64,000 nucleotides of DNA, taken from assembly GCA_001784285.1 (NCBI GenBank), contig MFQC01000003.1:221517-285516 (forward strand). The letters are read 5' to 3'. The stretch is from Candidatus Magasanikbacteria bacterium RIFCSPHIGHO2_02_FULL_48_18 (GTDB lineage: Bacteria > Patescibacteriota > Patescibacteriia > Magasanikbacterales > UBA922). Both the position numbers and the translations under genes were made by a program. The notes beneath the pieces are model-generated. The model was not told where the DNA came from. It did no database searches and saw nothing but the letters and a program-made list of their open reading frames with translations. Shown here piece by piece: positions 28,863-60,850 of the stretch; the stretch's first letter is position 1; each line of letters starts with the position of its first letter.

Positions 28863-29222
28863 ATGAACTTCATCGCGAACAACATCGATTGGATTTTCCC
28901 CCTTCTCTGCATGGCCCTTTTCTTCGGGGGTTTTTTCTGGAGCAAGACCCTGTGGCTGCGGCGGCCCGGCAAGCCCCGGGCCAAGCCGGGGACGACGTGG
29001 AGTGTGGTCGCAAACCTCTCCCCCTCCTACCTCCTGGTCGTCCGCCCTTACGGGGGCGACGATGCGAGCTGCCAGCTCTGGCAGCTCCCGAGGAGCTCTG
29101 TGAGCCTCCTCTCCTACCCGGTCGGCACGAAATTCGTCGCCCAAAAGGGCGGCCGCTTCGCAAAGCTCGAGACCGAAAAGGAAGAGCCTTCTTCAAATGA
29201 CCGCAAGGTCAGGAGTATCTGA
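28863..29222 (+). CDS. small high-GC (GC3-biased) gene, foreign composition; N-terminal TM/signal-anchor
   Basis: Third codon positions are almost all G/C, unlike the host. Starts MNFIANNIDWIFPLLCMALFFGGFFWSK. Confidence 0.45.
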   Translation: MNFIANNIDWIFPLLCMALFFGGFFWSKTLWLRRPGKPRAKPGTTWSVVANLSPSYLLVVRPYGGDDASCQLWQLPRSSVSLLSYPVGTKFVAQKGGRFAKLETEKEEPSSNDRKVRSI

Positions 29223-29360: not shown

Positions 29361-29452
29361 CCCCTCCCTGCCCCTCCCCGGATGGGGAGGGAACTATTCT
29401 CCCCTGGTTAAACCGTTCCTCCCCCGAGAGGGGGAGGACAGGAGGGGGAATT
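29361..29452. repeat. G-rich hairpin cluster: perfect palindromes ccctcccc-ggat-ggggaggg (29372-29391) and tcctccccc-gaga-gggggagga (29417-29438), plus direct repeat ggaggacaggag
   Basis: Read directly from the sequence. The second hairpin has a GNRA (GAGA) tetraloop. Confidence 0.7.
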
Positions 29453-29830
29453 CTTCAAGTCACCATCCAACCGCCTGCACACTTCTCGTATTTTTTCCTT
29501 TACCCGATCACGATCAAACAACACCTCATCATTCGTAAAACGAAGAATACTATATCCCTGACGACGCAGCCAGTCTTCCCGCGCATGGTCATATTCTTTT
29601 TGAAAATAATGAATCGGTCCATCAACCTCAATAACCAATCGAAGCCATTTGCAATAAAAATCCACAATAAAAAATCCAATACTGGTCTGCCGTTGGAAGC
29701 GATATCCTAATTTTCTTTTCCTTATTTCCTGCCACAGCACCAACTCGGCTTTCGTCATGTGGCGACGAAGCCGACGGCGTCGCTCTTTTACAATGCGCCA
29801 ATACAACCTGTGATCACAATAAAAATTCAT
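29408..29830 (-). CDS. DUF559 endonuclease-domain protein (Vsr-like PD-(D/E)xK fold)
   Basis: LWQEIRKRKLGYRFQRQTSIGFFIVDFYCKWLRLVIEVDGPIH...ILRFTNDEV matches DUF559. The C-terminal about 15 codons are read-through of the hairpin region. Confidence 0.8.
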   Translation of the reverse strand: MNFYCDHRLYWRIVKERRRRLRRHMTKAELVLWQEIRKRKLGYRFQRQTSIGFFIVDFYCKWLRLVIEVDGPIHYFQKEYDHAREDWLRRQGYSILRFTNDEVLFDRDRVKEKIREVCRRLDGDLKNSPSCPPPLGGGTV

Positions 29831-35563: not shown

Positions 35564-36787
35564 ATGAAGCAAGAAAAAAAAATAGGGAGCCGTCCCGTGA
35601 TCTATGTTACGCGAGACATCGAACGCGCCCTGGGGCTTCCACTCGATACGCGTGGGTATTTTGTTGTTGCCAACAAAACCGACTTTGCAGTGTCAATCGC
35701 CAAAAATAATAAAAATGTCTTATTGATAAAAGAAAAAAAACTGCTCGACACGCGGGAACTTTTAGCGCATAAAAAAACAAAAGCGTTCATCGCACCATTT
35801 GCACAACCCAAAATTATGGTGTTTAAAAATACCCCCCAGATTGAACGCATCTGTCATGAAAGCGGCTGGCCTCTTTTGAACCCACCCTCGTTGCTTTCAA
35901 ATCGGGTAGAAGAAAAATTGTCCCAACTCTCTTGGCTTGGCGCGCTCTCTTCTTATCTTCCGCCACACACCAAGGAAGAGTGCAACAACATCACATGGCA
36001 AGACATCCCCTTTATGCTCCAGTTTAATCGCGCGCATACCGGACTTGGGACCACATTCATTACATCAAAAAAACAACTCCGAGCGATTCAAAAAAAATTC
36101 CCCAAACGGGAGGCGCGCGTCACCGCGTATATTGACGGCCCCATGTTTACGGTAAACGCGGTTGTCACGGACAGCACCATTCTGGTTGGCAATATCAGTT
36201 ATCAAATTACCGGACTGAAACCGTTTACCGACGAACGATTCGCGACCGTCGGAAATGACTGGATGCTCCCATCCATACTTCTTAATGCCGAACAACGCAC
36301 CCGTATTGCAACCTTGGCGAGGTATGTCGGGAAACGTCTCAAAAAAGACGGTTGGCTTGGTCTCTTTGGCATTGACGTGATATGCGAAAAAAAAACGGGC
36401 AAACTTTTTCTTATCGAAATCAACGCGCGCCAGCCAGCATCAGCGGTCTTTGAGTCGTGGCTCCAAAAAAAACAAAAAAAAACACAGCCAAAAACACAAA
36501 CGATTTGTGAAGCCCATATATGCGCGCTTCTCAAAAAGAAAACCCATCTTCCTCTCACAAACATAAAAAACGGGGCGCAACTCGTTCAGCGCGTCACAAA
36601 AAAAAGACACACACTGCGGAAAATAATTCCCGGCCAACACCATGGATTTTTTGTGATCCCCTATGCCAATACCGATCACAACGCCGACCTTTTGCGTATC
36701 CAGTCCGATACATGGGTTATGCAAAAAAATGGTATACTGAATACGACGGGAAAGGAAATTCTTTCGCTGGTTCACGATATGGTGTAA
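35564..36787 (+). CDS. ATP-grasp domain carboxylate-amine ligase
   Basis: GLFGIDVICEKKTGKLFLIEINARQPAS is an ATP-grasp C-terminal motif. Confidence 0.75.
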   Translation: MKQEKKIGSRPVIYVTRDIERALGLPLDTRGYFVVANKTDFAVSIAKNNKNVLLIKEKKLLDTRELLAHKKTKAFIAPFAQPKIMVFKNTPQIERICHESGWPLLNPPSLLSNRVEEKLSQLSWLGALSSYLPPHTKEECNNITWQDIPFMLQFNRAHTGLGTTFITSKKQLRAIQKKFPKREARVTAYIDGPMFTVNAVVTDSTILVGNISYQITGLKPFTDERFATVGNDWMLPSILLNAEQRTRIATLARYVGKRLKKDGWLGLFGIDVICEKKTGKLFLIEINARQPASAVFESWLQKKQKKTQPKTQTICEAHICALLKKKTHLPLTNIKNGAQLVQRVTKKRHTLRKIIPGQHHGFFVIPYANTDHNADLLRIQSDTWVMQKNGILNTTGKEILSLVHDMV

Positions 36788-36792
36788 ACGCT

Positions 36793-37569
36793 ATGCAAAC
36801 AAAAACGCTTTCCGAATACGCCATGCGCGTGATTCATGAGTATTGTCACCTCCCTTTTTCGGCAGTCTCAGTCCCCTGCCCGTATTTTAATAATCGCCGA
36901 ATCAAAATGCGCGGCGCCCTCCGGGTTCTTATTGGCAAAGGAACGCCGCAAGAAATTGTGGATGAAGCGCATATTATTGCGCTCAAAGAACATCTCCCCA
37001 TTGATGAATATAACGCGGATACGCTCAGACAATTTTTGACCGATCACCAGCTGGGCGTTGATTGCTCCGGATTGGTCTACCATGTCCTCAATGCGGAACA
37101 CCGTGGACGACTCAAAAAAATGCTTTCCTTTCCCCATGCAAAAAATCCGATCAGAACATTGCTCACGCACTTGAGACCTGCAGAAAACACTGGCGTCAAA
37201 ACATTTTCACACGACGCAAACAGTCGCGTTGTTGCAATAAAAGACGCGAATCCGGGAGACATGATTGTGTTTTTGGAAACCGGAAAATTTGCGACGCCCG
37301 ACCACATGTTGGTTATCCATACCGTAGAATATGAAAATACTGTGCCCGTCATGCTCCATTATACGCATGCCTTGCCATGGTCAACTGATGGAAAAAATAA
37401 TACCCATGTGCGTCAAGGAATAATACATATTATAAATCCGGAAAATCCGCTCAGCGAACAAGAATGGAGAGAAGAAGAAAAGACGGGGGAAGAAAATGAG
37501 ACATTCCAGCTTGGAAGAAGCGCCAAACGACTTGAAATGAGAAAATTGAACTGCTGGAGCTGTGTATAG
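36793..37569 (+). CDS. NlpC/P60-family papain-like hydrolase (putative amidase), cytoplasmic
   Basis: GVDCSGLVYHVL (catalytic Cys), GDMIVFLETGKFATPDHMLVIH (His), HYTHA. No signal peptide. Start chosen at the ATG at 36793 just after the upstream stop. Confidence 0.5.
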   Translation: MQTKTLSEYAMRVIHEYCHLPFSAVSVPCPYFNNRRIKMRGALRVLIGKGTPQEIVDEAHIIALKEHLPIDEYNADTLRQFLTDHQLGVDCSGLVYHVLNAEHRGRLKKMLSFPHAKNPIRTLLTHLRPAENTGVKTFSHDANSRVVAIKDANPGDMIVFLETGKFATPDHMLVIHTVEYENTVPVMLHYTHALPWSTDGKNNTHVRQGIIHIINPENPLSEQEWREEEKTGEENETFQLGRSAKRLEMRKLNCWSCV

Positions 37570-37696
37570 ATGCTTCCGTGCCCATACACTTTGTAGGCAT
37601 ACGTGCCGGCCGCGGCTTTGAGTCGATAATCGACCAATCGATTGCCAGGATGAGGAACATAATTCTGAAATGCAATCGCGTCAATGCCGTCTTGCC

Positions 37697-37725
37697 TTGA
37701 CGAAAAAATAAAAAAATTATATACT
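37697..37725 (+). promoter_or_regulatory. promoter TTGACG-17-TATACT for tRNA-Thr(GGT)
   Basis: Consensus-like hexamers 15 nt upstream of the tRNA 5' end. Confidence 0.5.
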
Positions 37726-37739
37726 TTTTCTCGCGTCAA

Positions 37740-37812
37740 TGCCGTCTTAGCTCAGTTGGTAGAGCGCCGCCATGGTAAGGCTGAGGTCTCGGGTTCGATC
37801 CCCGAAGACGGC
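37740..37812 (+). tRNA. tRNA-Thr (anticodon GGT)
   Basis: Manual cloverleaf: acceptor GCCGTCT/AGACGGC, D stem GCTC/GAGC, anticodon loop AT-GGT-AA, T arm TCGGG-TTCGATC-CCCGA, discriminator T. No encoded CCA. Confidence 0.85.
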
Positions 37813-37978
37813 TCGAAAAATATGGAGGCTGGTCGGTTCTCTCTTCGAGCAGATCACAACCGAGCTGACGGCACGAACCGAAGCCGCCGTGGCGCGCGGG
37901 GCTGAGGACTCCTTCCTCACCGCCCTCCGCGCCCACATCGAGAGGGCGCTCGGCGTCACCCTGCCGCCGCTCTCCTGA
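37813..37978 (+). pseudogene. high-GC 3' gene remnant (C-terminal about 50 codons ...EQITTELTARTEAAVARGAEDSFLTALRAHIERALGVTLPPLS*) abutting the tRNA 3' end
   Basis: Strong GC3 bias. The reading frame runs back into the tRNA, so there is no possible N-terminus. Confidence 0.4.
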
Positions 37979-38116
37979 CCGAGCACACACCGCCCCGCCA
38001 GGCGTTCAACATTGTCGACCAATCTGGCGGGAGCGGTTGACACATTATATTTTTCTCCCGTTGAACTCTCTGCAAAATATTGATATGATCTCTGTATTTG
38101 AAAGATAATTCTCCCT

Positions 38117-38814
38117 ATGAATGTTACTGTCGCCCTTGTCCAATATGCTATTGCTCACCTTGAACCCAAAACAAATATAGAGCGGGCCGAATATTTTATA
38201 CAAAAAGCATCCAAAGAACACGCAAACGTCGTCGTGTTTCCTGAAGATTTCATCACTGCGTCAATTTTTGGCAATCAAGAAAATCTGAATCATGGCGATG
38301 AATACCGCCGCACATTCCAAAGGTTCTTGGGATCTACCACAAAAATCATCCCTATATTTCTGAAAAATCATTCATAGACCCGGGGACGGATATTACCGTA
38401 TTTAACACCGCATACGGCAAAGCCGGCATTATTATTTGCTGGGACATTGTATTCCTGGAGATATTTGAACGAATGAAACAATTGGGAGTGCGTGTCGTCT
38501 TTTGTCCCAGTTATTGGTATAAAGAAATTGCAGGAGAAGGCGCTAAATGGAATTCCACGTGTGAAGAAGATCATATTGACGCCCTCTGCCGTACGCGAGC
38601 CCTTGAAAACAACATCATGTTTATTTACGCAAACGCCGCCGGCGTGATGAAATTTCCAAACGGAACTGTGGATACCCTCATTGGACACTCGCAAATAACA
38701 CTCCCCATTGTTGGGCCGGTTGCAAAAACAGAACATAATAATGAAACCATGATCGTGCACACAGTGGATCTTTCTATTTTGGATATTGGCAGAAAAGAAT
38801 ACTGGCTCGTATAA
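38117..38814 (+). pseudogene. nitrilase-superfamily carbon-nitrogen hydrolase, frameshifted
   Basis: N-part (VVVFPEDFI, catalytic Glu) stops at 38375-38377. The catalytic Cys region (KAGIIICWDI) continues in the +2 frame from 38374. The junction lies in the poly-A run ctgaaaaatca. Confidence 0.7.
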
Positions 38815-38883
38815 CAACAACACTGCTATTGCATTTTGTGCATCATTATTATTGGACAATATTTTTTCCTAAATTTTTAACAG

Positions 38884-38914
38884 AAAACCCCCAGCTTGCG
38901 CCGGGGATTTTTTA
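38884..38914 (+). terminator. Rho-independent terminator after nitrilase-family gene
   Basis: aaaaccccc-agcttgcg-ccgggg-attttttat. Confidence 0.5.
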
Positions 38915-39013
38915 TACTTTTGATAATTTTTGCCGTTCCAAAAATTTATCCTGCACCTTTCCCGAAAATCCCGTAGCTTACTACGGGAATGAGGGAGCTG
39001 AAAGGTACGGGAT

Positions 39014-39259
39014 TTATTTGCTTTCCATGTCTCCGCTTTTGCACACCTTGCATTTGCATTTAAAGAGTGACATCACCGCGGCAAGACCGACCAACACATA
39101 GACCAAATTTTCCAGCCAGCTAACGCCTCCAAGAATAAGATTGACCACGTTCCAATTTCCTCCAAACCACCCCCCAAGGCCAACCAAGCCCCAGTTAAGG
39201 CCACCGATGACGAGGAGGGCAAAGCCTACTTTCGTTCCGGTGCATTTTCCTTTTTGCAT
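39014..39259 (-). CDS. DUF378 family small membrane protein
   Basis: FALLVIGGLNWGLVGL...NLVYVLVGLAAV pattern. Start MQKGKC at 39259. ORF track extends to 39421. Confidence 0.65.
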   Translation of the reverse strand: MQKGKCTGTKVGFALLVIGGLNWGLVGLGGWFGGNWNVVNLILGGVSWLENLVYVLVGLAAVMSLFKCKCKVCKSGDMESK

Positions 39260-39287
39260 ATGCAAAAATTTAAAAATAATTCTTTCT

Positions 39288-40253
39288 CTATTGTCTTCCG
39301 TTTTTTTGCATTCTTTTTCTGCGGATAACTCGACGAACAAGATACACGACAAGAAAAAGAAGAAGCCACAGCGGTATATAAATGACCACCCAAATAATGG
39401 CACTAACCAATCCCTTCCCAAGATCGGTCAAACTGCGCATCGCCTCTTTTACAACCGCAATAGGTTTCCAAGAATCGGAATCATCAATTGCCGGAAGCCC
39501 TTCCGGATCGGTCGACAGATACACGGTGAGTGTTGACAGGTCCGCGCTTTGTTTTAAATATTTCATGCGTCCTTCAATTTGTTCAATGTGCGCCCGCACG
39601 GTCGTGAGTTCTCTTTGGACTGCCAAAATATCATCAATTCTAATCGCTTTTTTCATAATTTCCAAAAACTGGCTCTCTGCCGCGCGAAGATTTCCGAGCT
39701 GAGCGTCAAGATCAACATATTCTTCCGTCACATCTTGTCCGTTGACCGAGCGATTCTCCACCTCTCCCATGTTGCTCACGGCCGCAACCGCCGCGTCAAA
39801 CCGCGCAGATGGGATGCGAATAGTAATACTTCCTGATGGAGCAATATCGGCTTGTGAAATTTGGCTCGCGACGACAAATCCTTTTTCTTGACCCGCAAAG
39901 GCGCTAATATCCGCTATCGTCTGTGCGACGTCTTCTACCACCATTGAGAGCGATCCAGTTTTAATAATAAGCCGATTGACTGATCCGTCGTCCGGCTGTC
40001 CCGGTTCTTTTGGACCCGGGGTAGCGGCTTCAAGATCTGCTTTTTGATCGCCAAGTCTATCTAAAGACAAACGCTGTGTCACCCCTCCCAGTGCACCTGT
40101 CTGAGATTCGGATTCGTCGCCTTCATAATATTGGTTATAGGGATAAGAAGTACCCATGGATGTTCCGTAGTAAAATAACACCTTGAACACCCCAACAATA
40201 ATCAAAAGGAGTAATAAAATTCCTCCCAGCCCATACAACATTTTTTTGTTCAT
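39288..40253 (-). CDS. DUF4349 domain membrane protein
   Basis: N-terminal TM, then DVTEEYVDLDAQLGNLRAAESQFLEIMKKA...AVQRELTTVRAHIEQIEGRMKYL typical of DUF4349. C-terminal TM. Confidence 0.7.
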   Translation of the reverse strand: MNKKMLYGLGGILLLLLIIVGVFKVLFYYGTSMGTSYPYNQYYEGDESESQTGALGGVTQRLSLDRLGDQKADLEAATPGPKEPGQPDDGSVNRLIIKTGSLSMVVEDVAQTIADISAFAGQEKGFVVASQISQADIAPSGSITIRIPSARFDAAVAAVSNMGEVENRSVNGQDVTEEYVDLDAQLGNLRAAESQFLEIMKKAIRIDDILAVQRELTTVRAHIEQIEGRMKYLKQSADLSTLTVYLSTDPEGLPAIDDSDSWKPIAVVKEAMRSLTDLGKGLVSAIIWVVIYIPLWLLLFLVVYLVRRVIRRKRMQKNGRQ

Positions 40254-40494
40254 AGAGGATACGTATAAGAGTTAAAAAGAATTGCCTTGAGTATAGCAAA
40301 AAAACAAAAAATAGTCCACGCGATGTGGACTATTTGAAACAGGTTCTAAGCACCCTATCTGCCTTGATTATGGTTCAAAACAGAAGAGGATGGTCGAGTG
40401 TGGGCTAGGACTCGACCGGCAGAGGCGTTTGCGCCTCCTTGTGGAAGAGTTCATCGAACGAACAGCGGGGCCCAGACCGCTGTGGGTGGGGGGA

Positions 40495-41949
40495 TTAGGC
40501 CTGCGCGACGGCCGGGAACGTGGTGATGGAGGTAGAACGGCTGGCCTGCATCGGCTCAACCGCTACCCCCGCCAGCACCTTGCCCGTGACCTCTTCAATA
40601 CCCCCATAGTGGGGGTATCCGGCCTCACGGTAATCCCGGATCATGTCGACCAGGACTTGCAGGGCGGCCCGGAGCTGGTCACCCTGCTTGGAGTGGGTCA
40701 CCCGAAGGCCACGGATGACCTGGCCGTTCTCGATGTCCTGGAAGCCGGACAGTGGGATGCAGTAGGTGAACTTCGGAAGATCACCGTTCCGCTCCCCGTC
40801 CCGAGCCGCGGCGATCGACGCGAGCAGACGGTGGAGAAGGAGCTGGACCTCGTCGAGTTGGGGGTCCTCGAACACCACGACGTCGTAGTAGGCCCCCTGG
40901 CCGGAAATGAGCCGAAGCCCAGAGACGTACCCCAGAACTTCTCTCGCGATGCGTCGGTTGTCGGCCATCTCCTGGTTGAGCGCCCAGAAGTAGGCAGGCA
41001 ACCCCTCCGGCCCGAAGTCGTTCACGAGTACAGCGAGGGCATGCTGTACGTTCATGAAGTTGTTGACTCCGAGCCAGAGGTTGCTCCAGGGGACCAGAAG
41101 TTGCCGGATGCGCCGGTCGAGGGTCGTGAGTCGGCCGAGCCGCGCAGACGTGATGCAGGCCGTCTTGGACCAGGCCGCGGTCGAGATCGTCCGCGAAAGC
41201 CCGAGTTCGAGGATTGAGCGCGGCAGTCCATCGCTGACGCCGTAGTACTCTTCGTCCGCAAGGACGCACGTCTCACGGCGTTGCGGGTCGAGAAGAAAAT
41301 CTCTGACTGCTCCGAGCTCATCGTCGTCCCAGTTCTTAGCGGTCGGGTTTCCCGGCCGCTCGATGACGACGAGACGGCTCTCCTGCTTGACCCGCCGCAA
41401 CAGACTCGGCGTCACACGGAATCCCTCGCTAGGGTCCGTGGTGATGGCCTGCACCGAACGGCCGAGAAGCTTGCAGATGACCGGTGTGTTCGGCCAGGAA
41501 GGCCGAAACACGGTTACCAGATCTCCTGGCCGTGTGACGAGATTGATCGCCCCAAAGACAGCCCCGATCCCCCCGGGGGTGATCATGCTGTCCTCGGAGG
41601 TGATCCGGACTCCAGTCATCCCTGTCAGGTTCTGGGCGAGCGCGTCGAGAAGCACCTGCTCGCCGAAGGCCTGAGGGTAGGACTCGGGGTGACGCGGGTC
41701 GGCCACGATCGCGCGATAGATGCGATCCGGCGGCAAACGCGACAGACTGCCGACCGCGAGATGTGTGACCGGAACGCCGAGCTTTTCCGCGGTGCGGACG
41801 AGTGGGCGAAGCCGCCGAAGAATCGGCGTCTCGCCCATCATGACCAGGTTTGTCGGGTTCAAGTGGTACGCCCCCTGGCTCGGGCGTTCCACCGTGGTTC
41901 TTGCGCCATAGCCAAGGGCGGCCATAAGCGCTTCACCGGTTGGAGCCAT
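40495..41949 (-). CDS. class I/II PLP-dependent aminotransferase, high-GC foreign gene
   Basis: AWSKTACITSARLGRL (PLP-lysine motif SxSKxxxxxGxRxG) and ERPGNPT. GC3-biased codons, roughly 62% GC versus about 45% background (visual estimate). Start MAPTGEAL at 41949. Confidence 0.8.
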   Translation of the reverse strand: MAPTGEALMAALGYGARTTVERPSQGAYHLNPTNLVMMGETPILRRLRPLVRTAEKLGVPVTHLAVGSLSRLPPDRIYRAIVADPRHPESYPQAFGEQVLLDALAQNLTGMTGVRITSEDSMITPGGIGAVFGAINLVTRPGDLVTVFRPSWPNTPVICKLLGRSVQAITTDPSEGFRVTPSLLRRVKQESRLVVIERPGNPTAKNWDDDELGAVRDFLLDPQRRETCVLADEEYYGVSDGLPRSILELGLSRTISTAAWSKTACITSARLGRLTTLDRRIRQLLVPWSNLWLGVNNFMNVQHALAVLVNDFGPEGLPAYFWALNQEMADNRRIAREVLGYVSGLRLISGQGAYYDVVVFEDPQLDEVQLLLHRLLASIAAARDGERNGDLPKFTYCIPLSGFQDIENGQVIRGLRVTHSKQGDQLRAALQVLVDMIRDYREAGYPHYGGIEEVTGKVLAGVAVEPMQASRSTSITTFPAVAQA

Positions 41950-42182
41950 AACTGCTCTCCTCTGGTTTTTGGTTTTGGCAGTCCCCTTGTGAAACTGCCG
42001 TGAATGGCGTTTTGCCTCAAAACCCAAATTCGGACAGACAGGATGTCCAAAACAGGGTCGCAAAAACGAGGGCGCCACCCTCGTTGAAGCCCGCGGTCCT
42101 CCATCTCCGCGGTTGAGAAAAAGTAAACTTGATTTTTGATGAACAAAGGACTTTACCCCGACAAAAGTCGGGACAAAGATCC

Positions 42183-42267
42183 TGGTGGGCCGGGCAGGAT
42201 TCGAACCTGCGAAGGCAGAGCCAACAGATTTACAGTCTGTCCTCGTTGACCGCTTGAGTACCGACCC
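42183..42267 (-). tRNA. tRNA-Tyr (anticodon GTA), long variable arm, CCA encoded
   Basis: Manual fold: acceptor GGGTCGG/CCGGCCC, anticodon stem ACAGA/TCTGT, loop CT-GTA-AA, T arm GCAGG-TTCGAAT-CCTGC, 85 nt. Confidence 0.85.
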
Positions 42268-42271
42268 CTCG

Positions 42272-42344
42272 AGCCATCTCGGGGATTCGAACCCCGGACC
42301 TTCACTTTACAAAAGTGTTGCTCTACCAGCTGAGCTAAGATGGC
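42272..42344 (-). tRNA. tRNA-Thr (anticodon TGT)
   Basis: Acceptor GCCATCT/AGATGGC, D stem GCTC/GAGC, anticodon loop TT-TGT-AA, T arm CGGGG-TTCGAAT-CCCCG, discriminator T. Lies 4 nt from tRNA-Tyr. Confidence 0.85.
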
Positions 42345-58939: not shown

Positions 58940-59211
58940 ACGGGAAAAAAGGTGATTTGTCTATTTGACGTCAAACGTCGGACGCCTACTGGCAAGGCAG
59001 GCCAAACAATCAGTACTATTGTATTGATTGACAAACGCTCAATGTTATGATACAAAACCAAATCCAAAAAAAGACCGTTTTGGTCCATTTTGGGTGTGTT
59101 CTTTAAAAAAAGACATGGCGTGCCATGAGAAGACTTTTCTCTTTTCATGGGACGCTGTGTCAAAACTGACATGGCAATGTGAAGGCTTCGAAAGAAAAGA
59201 GGAGAAACGCC
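58940..59211 (+). promoter_or_regulatory. regulatory region of the M20 cassette: TTGATT-16-TATGAT promoter, palindromes TTGACGTCAA and CATGGC-gt-GCCATG, SD aaGAGGAGa
   Basis: Read directly from the sequence. SD is 8 nt before the ATG at 59212. Confidence 0.4.
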
Positions 59212-60384
59212 ATGGCTACGAAGAACATCGCCGCCGCCGTCCGCCACGTCCTTCCCGCCACCCGCGGATTCGCATTCCACCTCCACCGCGAGCCGGAGCT
59301 CTCCTGGGGCGAGGTGAGGACCATGGACAAGGTGACCGAGGCGATCGTGAACCACTTCACGGAGGCCAGGATCGTCCGGTGGAAGTCCGGATTCTGGACT
59401 GACGTGGTTGTCAACCCGGACGATCCGACGCTCACCATGTTTCGGGCCGACATGGACGCCCTCCCTGTCCAAGAGGCCACCGGCCTGCCCTACTCGAGTC
59501 GTATCCAGGGCGTCATGCACGCCTGCGGACACGACTTCCACACGGCCGGGCTCCTCGGCGCCTACCGCGCGATTGCCCGCGGCCTGGTCAGGCCAACCCG
59601 AAACATCCGGTTCGTGTTCCAGGCGGCCGAGGAATCCCCGGAGTCCGGGGCCAAGGCCATGATCGAGGAATGCGTTCTCGAGAACGTCGTCTCGGCCCAC
59701 GGCGCCCATGTCTGGCCGTACGCGCCGGTCGGTACCGCGCTGTGCCGGCCGGGGCCAATGATGGCCAACCCGGGTGTGCTCCGGCTCAAAATCCGGTCGG
59801 CCGGCGGCCACGTGGCCGATCCGGAGCACGGTTCGGGTGCTCTCCGCGGGGCGGTGTGCGCGATCTGGGGGCTCCTGTCGTCCCAGTTCAACGTGGTCCC
59901 CGAGGGCCAGCCGTTCGTGCTGGAGCCGGTCCAGTGCCAGGCTGGAGACGGTGTCGTCACCAATGTCCTCCCCTCGGAGGCAACGTTGGTGTTCAACATC
60001 CGGCATTTCCTGGTAGGGGACCAGCGCGACCTGCTCCAGGCCGCGATCGAGGGGGTGATCCGCACCTCGGTCGCGAAGGTCCCGGGCGCCGAGGTCGCCG
60101 ATCTCTCCTTCCAGTGGGGCGCGCCGGCACTTCACAACACGCCCGAGGACGTGGAGCGGGTCGGGGCGCTCCTCGGCGCCCAGGGGCTGACCGTCAAGGA
60201 GATGGCCCCGATCCTCGGGGCCGAGGACTTCTCCTACTTCCTCGGCGAGCGGCCCGGCTCATTCTGGTTCTTCGGTGCCCACACCGAGGGCACGGGGCCG
60301 ATCCACAGCCCCACCTTCGTGTGCAACCCGAAGGTCCTCCAGGGCCTCATCGCCTACTGGCTCGCGCTCGCGACCGCTCCGTAG
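59212..60384 (+). CDS. M20D-family amidohydrolase (hippurate hydrolase / N-acyl-amino acid amidohydrolase-like), high-GC foreign gene
   Basis: HACGHD, GAEDFS motifs. Roughly 65% GC with strong GC3 bias. ORF track starts at 59179, but the SD supports 59212. Confidence 0.85.
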   Translation: MATKNIAAAVRHVLPATRGFAFHLHREPELSWGEVRTMDKVTEAIVNHFTEARIVRWKSGFWTDVVVNPDDPTLTMFRADMDALPVQEATGLPYSSRIQGVMHACGHDFHTAGLLGAYRAIARGLVRPTRNIRFVFQAAEESPESGAKAMIEECVLENVVSAHGAHVWPYAPVGTALCRPGPMMANPGVLRLKIRSAGGHVADPEHGSGALRGAVCAIWGLLSSQFNVVPEGQPFVLEPVQCQAGDGVVTNVLPSEATLVFNIRHFLVGDQRDLLQAAIEGVIRTSVAKVPGAEVADLSFQWGAPALHNTPEDVERVGALLGAQGLTVKEMAPILGAEDFSYFLGERPGSFWFFGAHTEGTGPIHSPTFVCNPKVLQGLIAYWLALATAP

Positions 60385-60431: not shown

Positions 60432-60490
60432 ACGCCCTCGTTGGTCACTGATCACGCACGATCATACCAACGAGGGCGTCTGTGTTTTTT
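60432..60490 (+). terminator. Rho-independent terminator of the M20 gene
   Basis: 14-bp stem acgccctcgttggt / accaacgagggcgt followed by a TTTTTT run. Confidence 0.7.
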
Positions 60491-60850
60491 ATCCTGAGCG
60501 AGCCCGCCGATAGGCGGACGAGTCGAAGGATCCTGTTTCAGATAGGATCCCGTTTCAGACAGAACGCTAAAAAGATTTTTCATCTGAGGATTCATCTTTT
60601 CAACCAAATCTATTTTTTTCTTTCTCGTCCACCCTTTCAATTGTTTCTCCCGGGCAGTTGCTTCTTCCGGAGAAAAATATTTTTCAAAATATATCAAGAT
60701 ATCAATATTGTATTTTGCAGTGAATGAATGTTTCTTTTGTTTCCTTACATGTTCACTAAATCTTCTTTTCAAATTATTGGTAACGCCAATATATAAAACT
60801 GTTTTTCGTCTGTTGGTCATTATGTATGTATAATAATATTTTCCACACAT
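60452..60850 (-). CDS. small GIY-YIG nuclease family protein
   Basis: YYTYIMTNRRKTVLYIGVTNNLKRRFSEH is a GIY-YIG motif. Strong SD aaGGGAGGg. The C-terminal tail is read through the opposite-strand terminator, so the real stop is probably earlier. Confidence 0.7.
   Translation of the reverse strand: MCGKYYYTYIMTNRRKTVLYIGVTNNLKRRFSEHVRKQKKHSFTAKYNIDILIYFEKYFSPEEATAREKQLKGWTRKKKIDLVEKMNPQMKNLFSVLSETGSYLKQDPSTRPPIGGLAQDKKHRRPRWYDRA

Follow-up and report, generated by a model that had tools for sequence, protein, structure and literature searches.

A probable seam of conserved Magasanikbacteria gene blocks, collecting acquired DNA between two tRNA loci

The DNA analysed here, a stretch of 64,000 nucleotides (nt) from contig MFQC01000003.1 of Candidatus Magasanikbacteria bacterium RIFCSPHIGHO2_02_FULL_48_18 (assembly GCA_001784285.1; hereafter the window), contains a 4.4-kb interval of mosaic base composition lying between two tRNA loci, tRNA-Thr(GGT) on the plus strand and the pair tRNA-Tyr(GTA) and tRNA-Thr(TGT) on the minus strand. 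It is probable, in our estimate at roughly 60%, that this interval is the seam of two conserved Magasanikbacteria gene blocks and has been collecting acquired DNA, now present at varied stages of decay. Comparison of gene order indicates that the blocks flanking the 4.4 kb are not neighbours in relatives. An initial annotation had pictured the interval as an integration hotspot or a decayed composite island, with GC-rich (guanine- and cytosine-rich) foreign DNA abutting the 3' end of each bracketing tRNA. The gene content given there, namely a frameshifted nitrilase, DUF378, DUF4349 and a high-GC aminotransferase, is confirmed by Pfam, and the abutment holds at tRNA-Thr(GGT), where a gap of 12 nt intervenes, but not at tRNA-Tyr, where about 55 nt that include a terminator lie between.

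The 4.4-kb mosaic is genuine sequence and not an assembly chimera, since both of its junctions are identical in independent assemblies. Specifically, a RIFCSPLOWO2_12_FULL Ca. Magasanikbacteria assembly (GCA_001783045.1; MFQL01000010.1, 290 kb) encodes proteins identical to the window's aminotransferase and TIM, and the further matching assemblies, which come from several samples and pipelines, were assembled independently and all represent one species. Across the tRNA-Tyr/aminotransferase junction, L001-L004 are 100% identical to the window and L009 and L010 are 99.8-99.97% identical; the tRNA-Thr(GGT) junction with the adjoining GC-rich relic is covered by L001, L002 and L058, each identical to the window there. 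Overall these conspecific assemblies show 99.8-100% identity, and neither tRNA bears an indel in them. Throughout, tRNAs were called with ARAGORN and Rfam, gene domains were assigned with Pfam, and GC content was profiled in 40-nt bins; the window averages 0.476 GC, and the GC content at third codon positions (GC3) of its genes has a mean of 0.49 and a standard deviation of 0.09.

The gap between tRNA-Tyr and DUF378

Relatives of the locus were found through a scan of GTDB with the TIM protein and a scan of metagenomes with an alignment of the TPR protein. The former returned one relative only, at 56% identity, the latter reached a maximum of 49%, and the collections searched held no close relative in which an empty site could be read at base-pair level. 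The three related lineages available for comparison, each represented by a pair of loci (L013 with L021, L014 with L015, and L017 with L020; within-pair identity 99.5-99.99%), share 42-63% identity with the window in the flanking proteins. In all three, GlyRS-M16-TIM-TPR is followed by tRNA-Thr(TGT) and tRNA-Tyr. In the window, tRNA-Thr(TGT) (42271-42344, minus strand) likewise marks the conserved end of this block, with tRNA-Tyr(GTA) (42183-42267, minus strand) beside it, both being recognised by ARAGORN and by Rfam.

What follows the tRNA pair varies by lineage. DUF378, encoding a small membrane protein recognised by Pfam and found in the window at 39014-39259 on the minus strand, lies 186 nt past the tRNAs in L013, begins 72 nt past them in L015, and is removed from them by 7.6 kb in L017 and L020, where unrelated cargo fills the gap (L017 3329-10968). 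This cargo encodes a UvrD-like helicase, MscL, a Ser/Thr kinase, a TTQN tandem-repeat protein, an IS66-like transposase, a metallophosphoesterase and a peroxiredoxin, and lacks flanking tRNA-derived repeats. The gap of the window measures 2.9 kb and holds the aminotransferase and DUF4349 genes, homologs of which were present in none of the related loci examined. Because DUF378 stands next to the tRNAs in relatives, it appears to be the ancestral neighbour of the tRNA pair, and the proposal of one decayed composite island does not accommodate an ancestral gene in the middle of the interval.

Together these data, at gene-order resolution, support the tRNA-Tyr/DUF378 gap as a recurrent insertion site: two lineages leave it empty and a third fills it differently. 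Judged by gene order, the gap is also a hotspot in the sense that its conserved boundary genes enclose accessory genes that differ, here across lineages and not within a species. The hotspot proposed initially is thus upheld for this gap, which carries 0, 2.9 or 7.6 kb of cargo depending on lineage, and the left side of the interval is without a comparator. The empty-site comparison suggested with that proposal gave the same division, succeeding on the right at the level of gene order and failing on the left, where relatives carry a C40-GT4 arrangement without a tRNA.

The sequence immediately past tRNA-Tyr bears on where the inserted DNA begins. A terminator-like hairpin directly follows the tRNA (42151-42178, minus strand) and marks the end of the native tRNA operon; an analogous hairpin follows tRNA-Tyr in L013. 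Beyond the tRNA the DNA is AT-rich (GC 0.38 over 42130-42169), and GC content climbs only from approximately 42125, about 55 nt from tRNA-Tyr, to become strongly high from the coding start at 41949. The earlier placement of the GC-rich boundary at 42180, in contact with the tRNA, is therefore not sustained, the hairpin and AT-rich DNA coming first. At the far end of the insert, the DUF4349 gene (39288-40253, minus strand; Pfam) is low in GC, with a GC3 of 0.43, and is preceded by a promoter-like site (40318-40290); DUF378 lies 28 nt downstream of it.

The arrangement of the tRNAs themselves also varies. In L014 (3645-3876) and L015 (5380-5611) their order is reversed, with tRNA-Tyr preceding tRNA-Thr(TGT), and the two are 74 nt apart, compared with 1-3 nt in the window and L013. 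Descent from an ancestral operon resembling thrU-tyrU-glyT-thrT, followed by inversion of tRNA-Thr(GGT), was considered and found unsupported, the relatives having only two tRNAs within 10 kb.

The tRNA-Thr(GGT) side and the search for integration signs

On the left, tRNA-Thr(GGT) occupies 37741-37814 of the plus strand according to ARAGORN, with Rfam placing its end at 37813, so that the tRNA reported initially is real and its end at 37812 needs a small correction. Its 3' end faces into the interval, and 12 nt past it begins a GC-rich orphan relic of 215 nt (37826-38040, plus strand) in which GC content ranges from 0.57 to 0.78 in 40-nt bins. As had been noted earlier, the relic has a GC3-biased reading frame that runs back into the tRNA: the plus-strand frame 37817-37978 has a GC3 of 0.76 and a stop codon at its end, and the open reading frame (ORF) extends back to 37772 (ORF 37772-37978). 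This plus-strand frame, of 53 amino acids from 37817, terminates ...LRAHIERALGVTLPPLS and is followed by a strong hairpin at approximately 37990-38037 (plus-strand RNA fold z = -3.4). With a codon model built from the three GC-rich genes in the window, this frame scores +13.6 bits and the remaining five frames score -1 or less; among 53-codon windows, a score of +13.6 is reached by about 95% of true-frame windows versus about 3% of wrong-frame windows.

Searches for homologs of the relic found none, whether by a word-indexed search of 5.8 billion proteins or by full HMMER against 1.84 billion representatives, and tblastn of the 53 residues against plasmids returned only the relic itself or noise. 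Two family matches fall below threshold and are set aside as evidence, namely Pfam PqqD (E = 0.19) and NCBIfam thiovarsolin (E = 0.019; 15 bits, with a cut-off of 35). From its codon statistics we read the relic as the putative 3' end of an otherwise deleted foreign GC-rich gene. The relic shows no similarity to the aminotransferase block or to the flanks of aminotransferase homologs, and the idea that relic and aminotransferase block are halves of one element was rejected for the lack of similarity between them.

Beyond the relic lies a carbon-nitrogen hydrolase pseudogene of the nitrilase superfamily (CN_hydrolase; 38117-38814, plus strand; Pfam) with native-like low GC. It is split into an N-terminal part (38117-38377) and a C-terminal part (38473-38814) in different frames, with the frameshift near 38330-38370. 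When the gene is conceptually repaired, residues 3-57 align with profile positions 1-55 and residues 70-229 with positions 107-265, so that profile positions of approximately 56-106 are represented by only about 13 residues; this gap in the alignment implies that some 40-50 codons are missing besides the frameshift. The defect is identical across independent assemblies, and the locus has no single intact ORF across the Glu-Lys-Cys catalytic core of a functional enzyme.

Between the convergent nitrilase pseudogene and DUF378, at approximately 38845-38930 (L058 1094-1179), stands a bidirectional terminator-like hairpin. Over the same positions there is a weak Rfam match to the Brucella sRNA BSnc120 (31 bits versus a gathering threshold of 114; E = 6e-4), which is probably without meaning. 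Within the window only tRNAs exceed the Rfam gathering threshold, and a more permissive setting, applied to L058 and to the contigs carrying aminotransferase homologs, added this match alone.

The left-hand block is best followed through the C40-family peptidase gene upstream of tRNA-Thr(GGT), which is widespread in Magasanikbacteria. L059, L060 and L063 carry ATP-grasp-C40-GT4-...-Mur ligase and lack a tRNA here; the window has tRNA-Thr(GGT) after C40, and then the GC-rich relic and the nitrilase pseudogene. Gene order therefore argues that the window lineage has rearranged its cell-wall gene neighbourhood, and that the left junction is a lineage-specific rearrangement for which relatives supply no empty-site comparator. 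As to the wider setting of the ATP-grasp-C40 pair (window 35564-37569), in the three relatives it is followed by the GT4 glycosyltransferase gene, a hypothetical gene, a RimK-like ATP-grasp gene in two of the three, and the Mur ligase gene, with MurB upstream in the two loci that reach that far; in the window the start of the dcw cluster (mraZ) is upstream of the pair and the tRNA downstream. A search with the relatives' GT4 gave nothing in the window at E < 1e-8, and the GT4 present in the window is hence not its ortholog. On this ground we rejected the idea that a GC-rich patch at 28.8-29.2 kb, beside the window's GT4, is the second half of an island that was split at the C40|GT4 junction.

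A further feature of the left junction is a pair of exact 18-nt direct repeats, TCGCGTCAATGCCGTCTT, located by a repeat finder at 37676-37693 and 37731-37748 of the plus strand. The copies are 55 nt apart, the second takes in the first 8 nt of tRNA-Thr(GGT), and between them lies a promoter-like TTGACG-17-TATACT (37697-37725). The repeat is on the wrong (5') side of the tRNA for an attachment (att) scar; it may be the footprint of the rearrangement that joined tRNA-Thr(GGT) to the C40 block.

Insertion scars at both tRNA 3' ends, as initially proposed, would be expected to leave traces of an integrase or of att sites. When the last 13-25 nt of each tRNA were sought across the 64 kb, with 1-3 mismatches permitted by pattern length, the tRNAs were the only matches; the direct repeats suggested earlier are absent from the interval as well, and a repeat finder detected no tRNA-derived repeat inside it. 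Similarly, Pfam detected neither recombinase nor transposase domains when genes and longer ORFs between 37.7 and 42.3 kb were scanned, shorter ORFs not all being included; it identified CN_hydrolase, DUF378, DUF4349 and Aminotran_1_2 and nothing else. Foreign DNA does begin at the 3' end of tRNA-Thr(GGT), allowing for a 12-nt gap, but at tRNA-Tyr the terminator hairpin and AT-rich spacer come first.

These negatives weigh against the alternative that survives best, in which integrase-mediated islands (two, or one composite) entered the 3' ends of tRNA-Thr(GGT) and tRNA-Tyr and have since lost their integrases and att repeats to decay. Such islands would account for compositionally foreign DNA 3' of both tRNAs, for a pseudogene between the two loci, and for the lineage-specific cargo of the tRNA-Tyr/DUF378 gap, which in L017 includes the IS66-like transposase; moreover, tRNA genes are common integrase targets (Oliveira et al., 2017, PMC5635113). 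However, besides the missing recombinase domains and the missing copies of tRNA 3' ends, in the window and around the L017 cargo alike, the aminotransferase block starts past the tRNA operon terminator and AT-rich spacer, DUF378 appears ancestral within the supposed island, and the other GC-rich genes of the window are not at tRNAs. We consider integrase-mediated origin unlikely.

The GC-rich aminotransferase gene and the proposed history of the interval

The acquired DNA of the interval includes a GC-rich block of 1.7 kb (40395-42125, minus strand) comprising a coding sequence, a GC-rich 3' tail of about 100 nt with hairpins, and a 5' leader of about 175 nt. The intact gene (40495-41949, minus strand; 484 amino acids) matches PF00155 (Aminotran_1_2) at 75.5 bits against a cut-off of 19.7. 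Its GC content is 0.64 overall and 0.60-0.66 throughout the coding sequence; by codon position it is 0.67/0.46/0.78, compared with approximately 0.55/0.38/0.46 in neighbouring genes. By sequence, the product belongs to the class I/II pyridoxal phosphate (PLP)-dependent aminotransferase family: the catalytic PLP motif S261-K262 in 'AWSK' is invariant in an alignment of eight family members, all the family-invariant residues, more than 90, are kept, and the matches in the PDB are distant aspartate aminotransferases. None of the NCBIfam equivalog cut-offs (AspAT, DapC, GntC, VioD and others) was reached; the top score is 85 bits for GntC versus a cut-off of 415, the rest likewise fall far short, and the nearest named models are GntC, VioD and aspartate aminotransferases. 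The family is rare, with eight clusters among 5.8 billion proteins, beyond which identity falls below 30%.

Synonymous sites were compared with the two closest homologs (77% identity) at codons for the same amino acid whose first two bases are identical. At 57 sites the window gene has A/T against G/C in both homologs, and at 3 the situation is reversed. More distant homologs, used as outgroup, have G/C in 95 of 115 comparable codons at the sites compared, which makes A/T the derived state in the window. Four-fold sites differ by approximately 0.64 between the window gene and its closest homologs, from which acquisition would not be recent relative to them. The direction of substitution thus indicates a foreign gene drifting toward host composition. 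Amelioration of acquired genes, as in the Lawrence and Ochman model, is a textbook pattern, and the case resembles it in its directional G/C-to-A/T synonymous excess in a GC-rich gene within a lower-GC genome; nothing about it is unusual.

The signals around the gene are host-like, with the tRNA terminator and AT-rich leader upstream and, downstream in low-GC DNA, a terminator-like hairpin and T-run (40309-40335, minus strand) followed by the promoter-like site of DUF4349. Inspection by eye found no convincing microhomology at the boundaries of the block. Carriage of the gene by phage was rejected, no relative of it having been found in IMG/VR.

A different and still less probable account would have the aminotransferase be no recent foreign gene at all, the high GC3 being intrinsic to the family or maintained by selection or biased gene conversion, so that the GC contrast would mark no insertion. 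The closest homologs lend this some substance. At 51-80% identity (L011, L054, L055/56 and L057), all have a GC3 of 0.81-0.95 between flanks with GC of 0.40-0.54, three of the contigs have a low-GC nucleotidyltransferase gene conserved upstream, and no compositionally matched high-GC donor context was found among the close homologs. Yet these contigs are only 2-3 kb long, and the GC of their flanks need not be that of the host genomes; the 57 versus 3 synonymous sites indicate that nothing maintains GC in the window gene; distant members have a GC3 of 0.49 on a 0.52-GC contig (L061, matched) and of 0.65 on a 0.69-GC contig (L012, lower); and the gene is missing from the site in all related Magasanikbacteria loci examined. 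The conserved upstream neighbour, in L011, L055/56 and L057, is a sugar-1-phosphate nucleotidyltransferase gene (GC3 0.34-0.52) set off by a spacer of approximately 270-500 nt.

An assembly or binning chimera, or a 4.4-kb segment inverted or invertible by recombination between the oppositely oriented tRNA-Thr genes, is hardly credible: these genes do form a 76-nt inverted repeat and Logan contigs do break in tRNAs, but different samples and pipelines yielded the same sequence at both junctions, and no contig in the alternative orientation was seen. The two tRNA-Thr genes agree at only about 75-78% of positions, and their longest exact match, of 11 nt, does not suffice for homologous recombination or for assembly k-mers in common; tRNA k-mers shared across species would be expected to break contigs at tRNAs. 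The Logan contig L058 corresponds to window 37752-42212, nearly the whole interval, L006 ends at 42310 and L007 at 42359; such breaks in tRNA genes on both sides likely reflect k-mers common to other species of the metagenomes and not structural variation.

Under the reading of the interval as a seam that collects acquired DNA, the right half would have had the ancestral order ...GlyRS-M16-TIM-TPR-tRNA-Thr(TGT)/tRNA-Tyr-[terminator]-DUF378, and 2.9 kb would have been inserted between the tRNA-operon terminator and DUF378 in the window lineage. The insert would consist of the gene for a rare, divergent class-I/II PLP aminotransferase-family protein and the low-GC DUF4349 gene, the latter now predicted to drive DUF378 as a two-gene unit. 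The aminotransferase gene would derive from a lineage with very GC-rich codons; intact and placed between host-like low-GC signals, it has presumably been resident long enough to lose some of its GC3 through G/C-to-A/T synonymous changes. In the left half, the ATP-grasp-C40 block, linked to GT4 in relatives, would have been joined to tRNA-Thr(GGT), after which come what are probably the last ~160 nt and 3' hairpin of a deleted GC-rich gene and then a decaying nitrilase-superfamily gene.

Patescibacteria are presumed to be naturally competent. We infer that the cell took up foreign DNA, which illegitimate or short-homology recombination then placed in transcriptionally neutral stretches past tRNA terminators, presumably with no site-specific recombinase involved, and that deletion then trimmed useless DNA up to an indispensable feature, the tRNA. 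The relic would abut the tRNA 3' end because deletion cannot enter a tRNA that is needed.

Several points weigh against this history. The nearest relatives available reach only 42-56% identity in flanking housekeeping proteins, so that the empty site is seen at the level of gene order and not of base pairs, and these comparisons do not fix the order or timing of events. Neither of the large protein libraries contains a homolog of the relic, whose reading as a coding remnant depends on the statistics of 53 codons. The insertion mechanism is deduced from missing mobile-element signatures, and old signatures could have decayed. DUF4349 may have been either acquired or relocated from elsewhere in the genome. 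Lastly, the aminotransferase donor was not found and the five closest homologs are themselves GC-rich between low-GC flanks; the gene is called foreign because of its composition and substitution direction, and not because of a donor genome.

Known systems and other GC-rich genes of the window

Among known systems, the locus resembles the hotspots of horizontal gene transfer (HGT) free of mobile genetic elements that were described by Oliveira et al. (2017, PMC5635113), who report that roughly half of all HGT hotspots have no recognisable mobile elements and that tRNA or tmRNA genes occur in only 29% of them. Like them, the tRNA-Tyr/DUF378 gap is bounded by conserved genes and holds varied accessory DNA (0, 2.9 or 7.6 kb), and in the window copy no integrase, transposase or att repeats were found in the ORFs scanned and the 64 kb searched. 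Unlike those hotspots, which are defined in species pangenomes, the window was compared across lineages with only ~42-56% protein identity, the conspecific assemblies all being identical. With tRNA-associated genomic islands, prophages and integrative and conjugative elements, which employ tyrosine recombinases, the locus shares foreign DNA 3' of tRNAs and pseudogenes nearby; it differs from them in that no integrase or duplicated tRNA 3' segment was found, in that a single-gene insert is placed past the tRNA terminator, and in that the middle of the interval appears ancestral.

Transfers in groundwater Patescibacteria offer another parallel. Aquifer members of this group are reported to carry hundreds of islands together with singly transferred genes (PMC12455944), and the window similarly comes from a streamlined aquifer genome of the candidate phyla radiation (CPR) with scattered metabolic genes of foreign composition, a PLP enzyme and an M20 amidohydrolase. 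The donors in that study were inferred to lie mostly inside Patescibacteria, whereas GC3 values of 0.78-0.89 in the window point to far GC-richer sources, the donor not having been found. The locus is a site of HGT and decay without mobile-element genes at a CPR synteny seam, an instance of ordinary gene-transfer turnover of a known kind. As such it provides an independently re-assembled example of gene gain and loss in a streamlined CPR genome: a permissive site past a tRNA operon appears to be filled differently among Magasanikbacteria lineages, and an intact acquired PLP enzyme, partway to host composition, adjoins DNA in terminal decay. It also counsels caution, in that a GC-rich patch beside a tRNA is not always an integrase scar.

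Two other GC-rich genes occur in the window. An intact M20/amidohydrolase gene (59179-60384), whose GC3 of 0.89 exceeds that of the aminotransferase, adjoins no tRNA and neighbours a low-GC gene with a GIY-YIG nuclease domain (60452-60850, minus strand). At 28863-29222, likewise not near a tRNA, a GC-rich ORF of 119 amino acids with an N-terminal hydrophobic segment and a GAGG ribosome-binding site, for which no family match was found, lies between the GT4 glycosyltransferase gene and a DUF559 gene (Vsr-like endonuclease fold; 29408-29830). Both thus adjoin small nuclease-family genes. Since GC-rich genes are found away from tRNAs, uptake from GC-rich sources would be general to the genome and not a property of tRNA sites.

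The locus itself raises no new question; the aminotransferase family, rare, uncharacterised and of odd composition across hosts, is a separate matter. About 100 nt past the aminotransferase stop, a stretch of approximately 50 nt is 82% identical between L054 (1919-1966) and L057 (2293-2342) and is absent from the window. It can be translated to the peptide (I/M)SLVLANLSS in both contigs, which differ there at third codon positions, and lies inside a GAGGAGA...TCTCCTC inverted repeat. It is conceivable, if doubtful, that the aminotransferase gene travels as a self-contained GC-rich unit made up of the coding sequence and a structured 3' tail of approximately 100-150 nt. In the window and four other distinct contigs the gene has a GC3 of 0.78-0.95 between flanks with GC of 0.40-0.54, and in three of the four it lies downstream of the nucleotidyltransferase gene; such a pattern would imply either an unrecognised cassette-like transfer, occurring repeatedly from GC-rich donors into low-GC and possibly CPR genomes, or long-term maintenance of extreme GC3 in a low-GC genome. 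The M20 gene and the relic next to tRNA-Thr(GGT) might then be further outcomes of that traffic.

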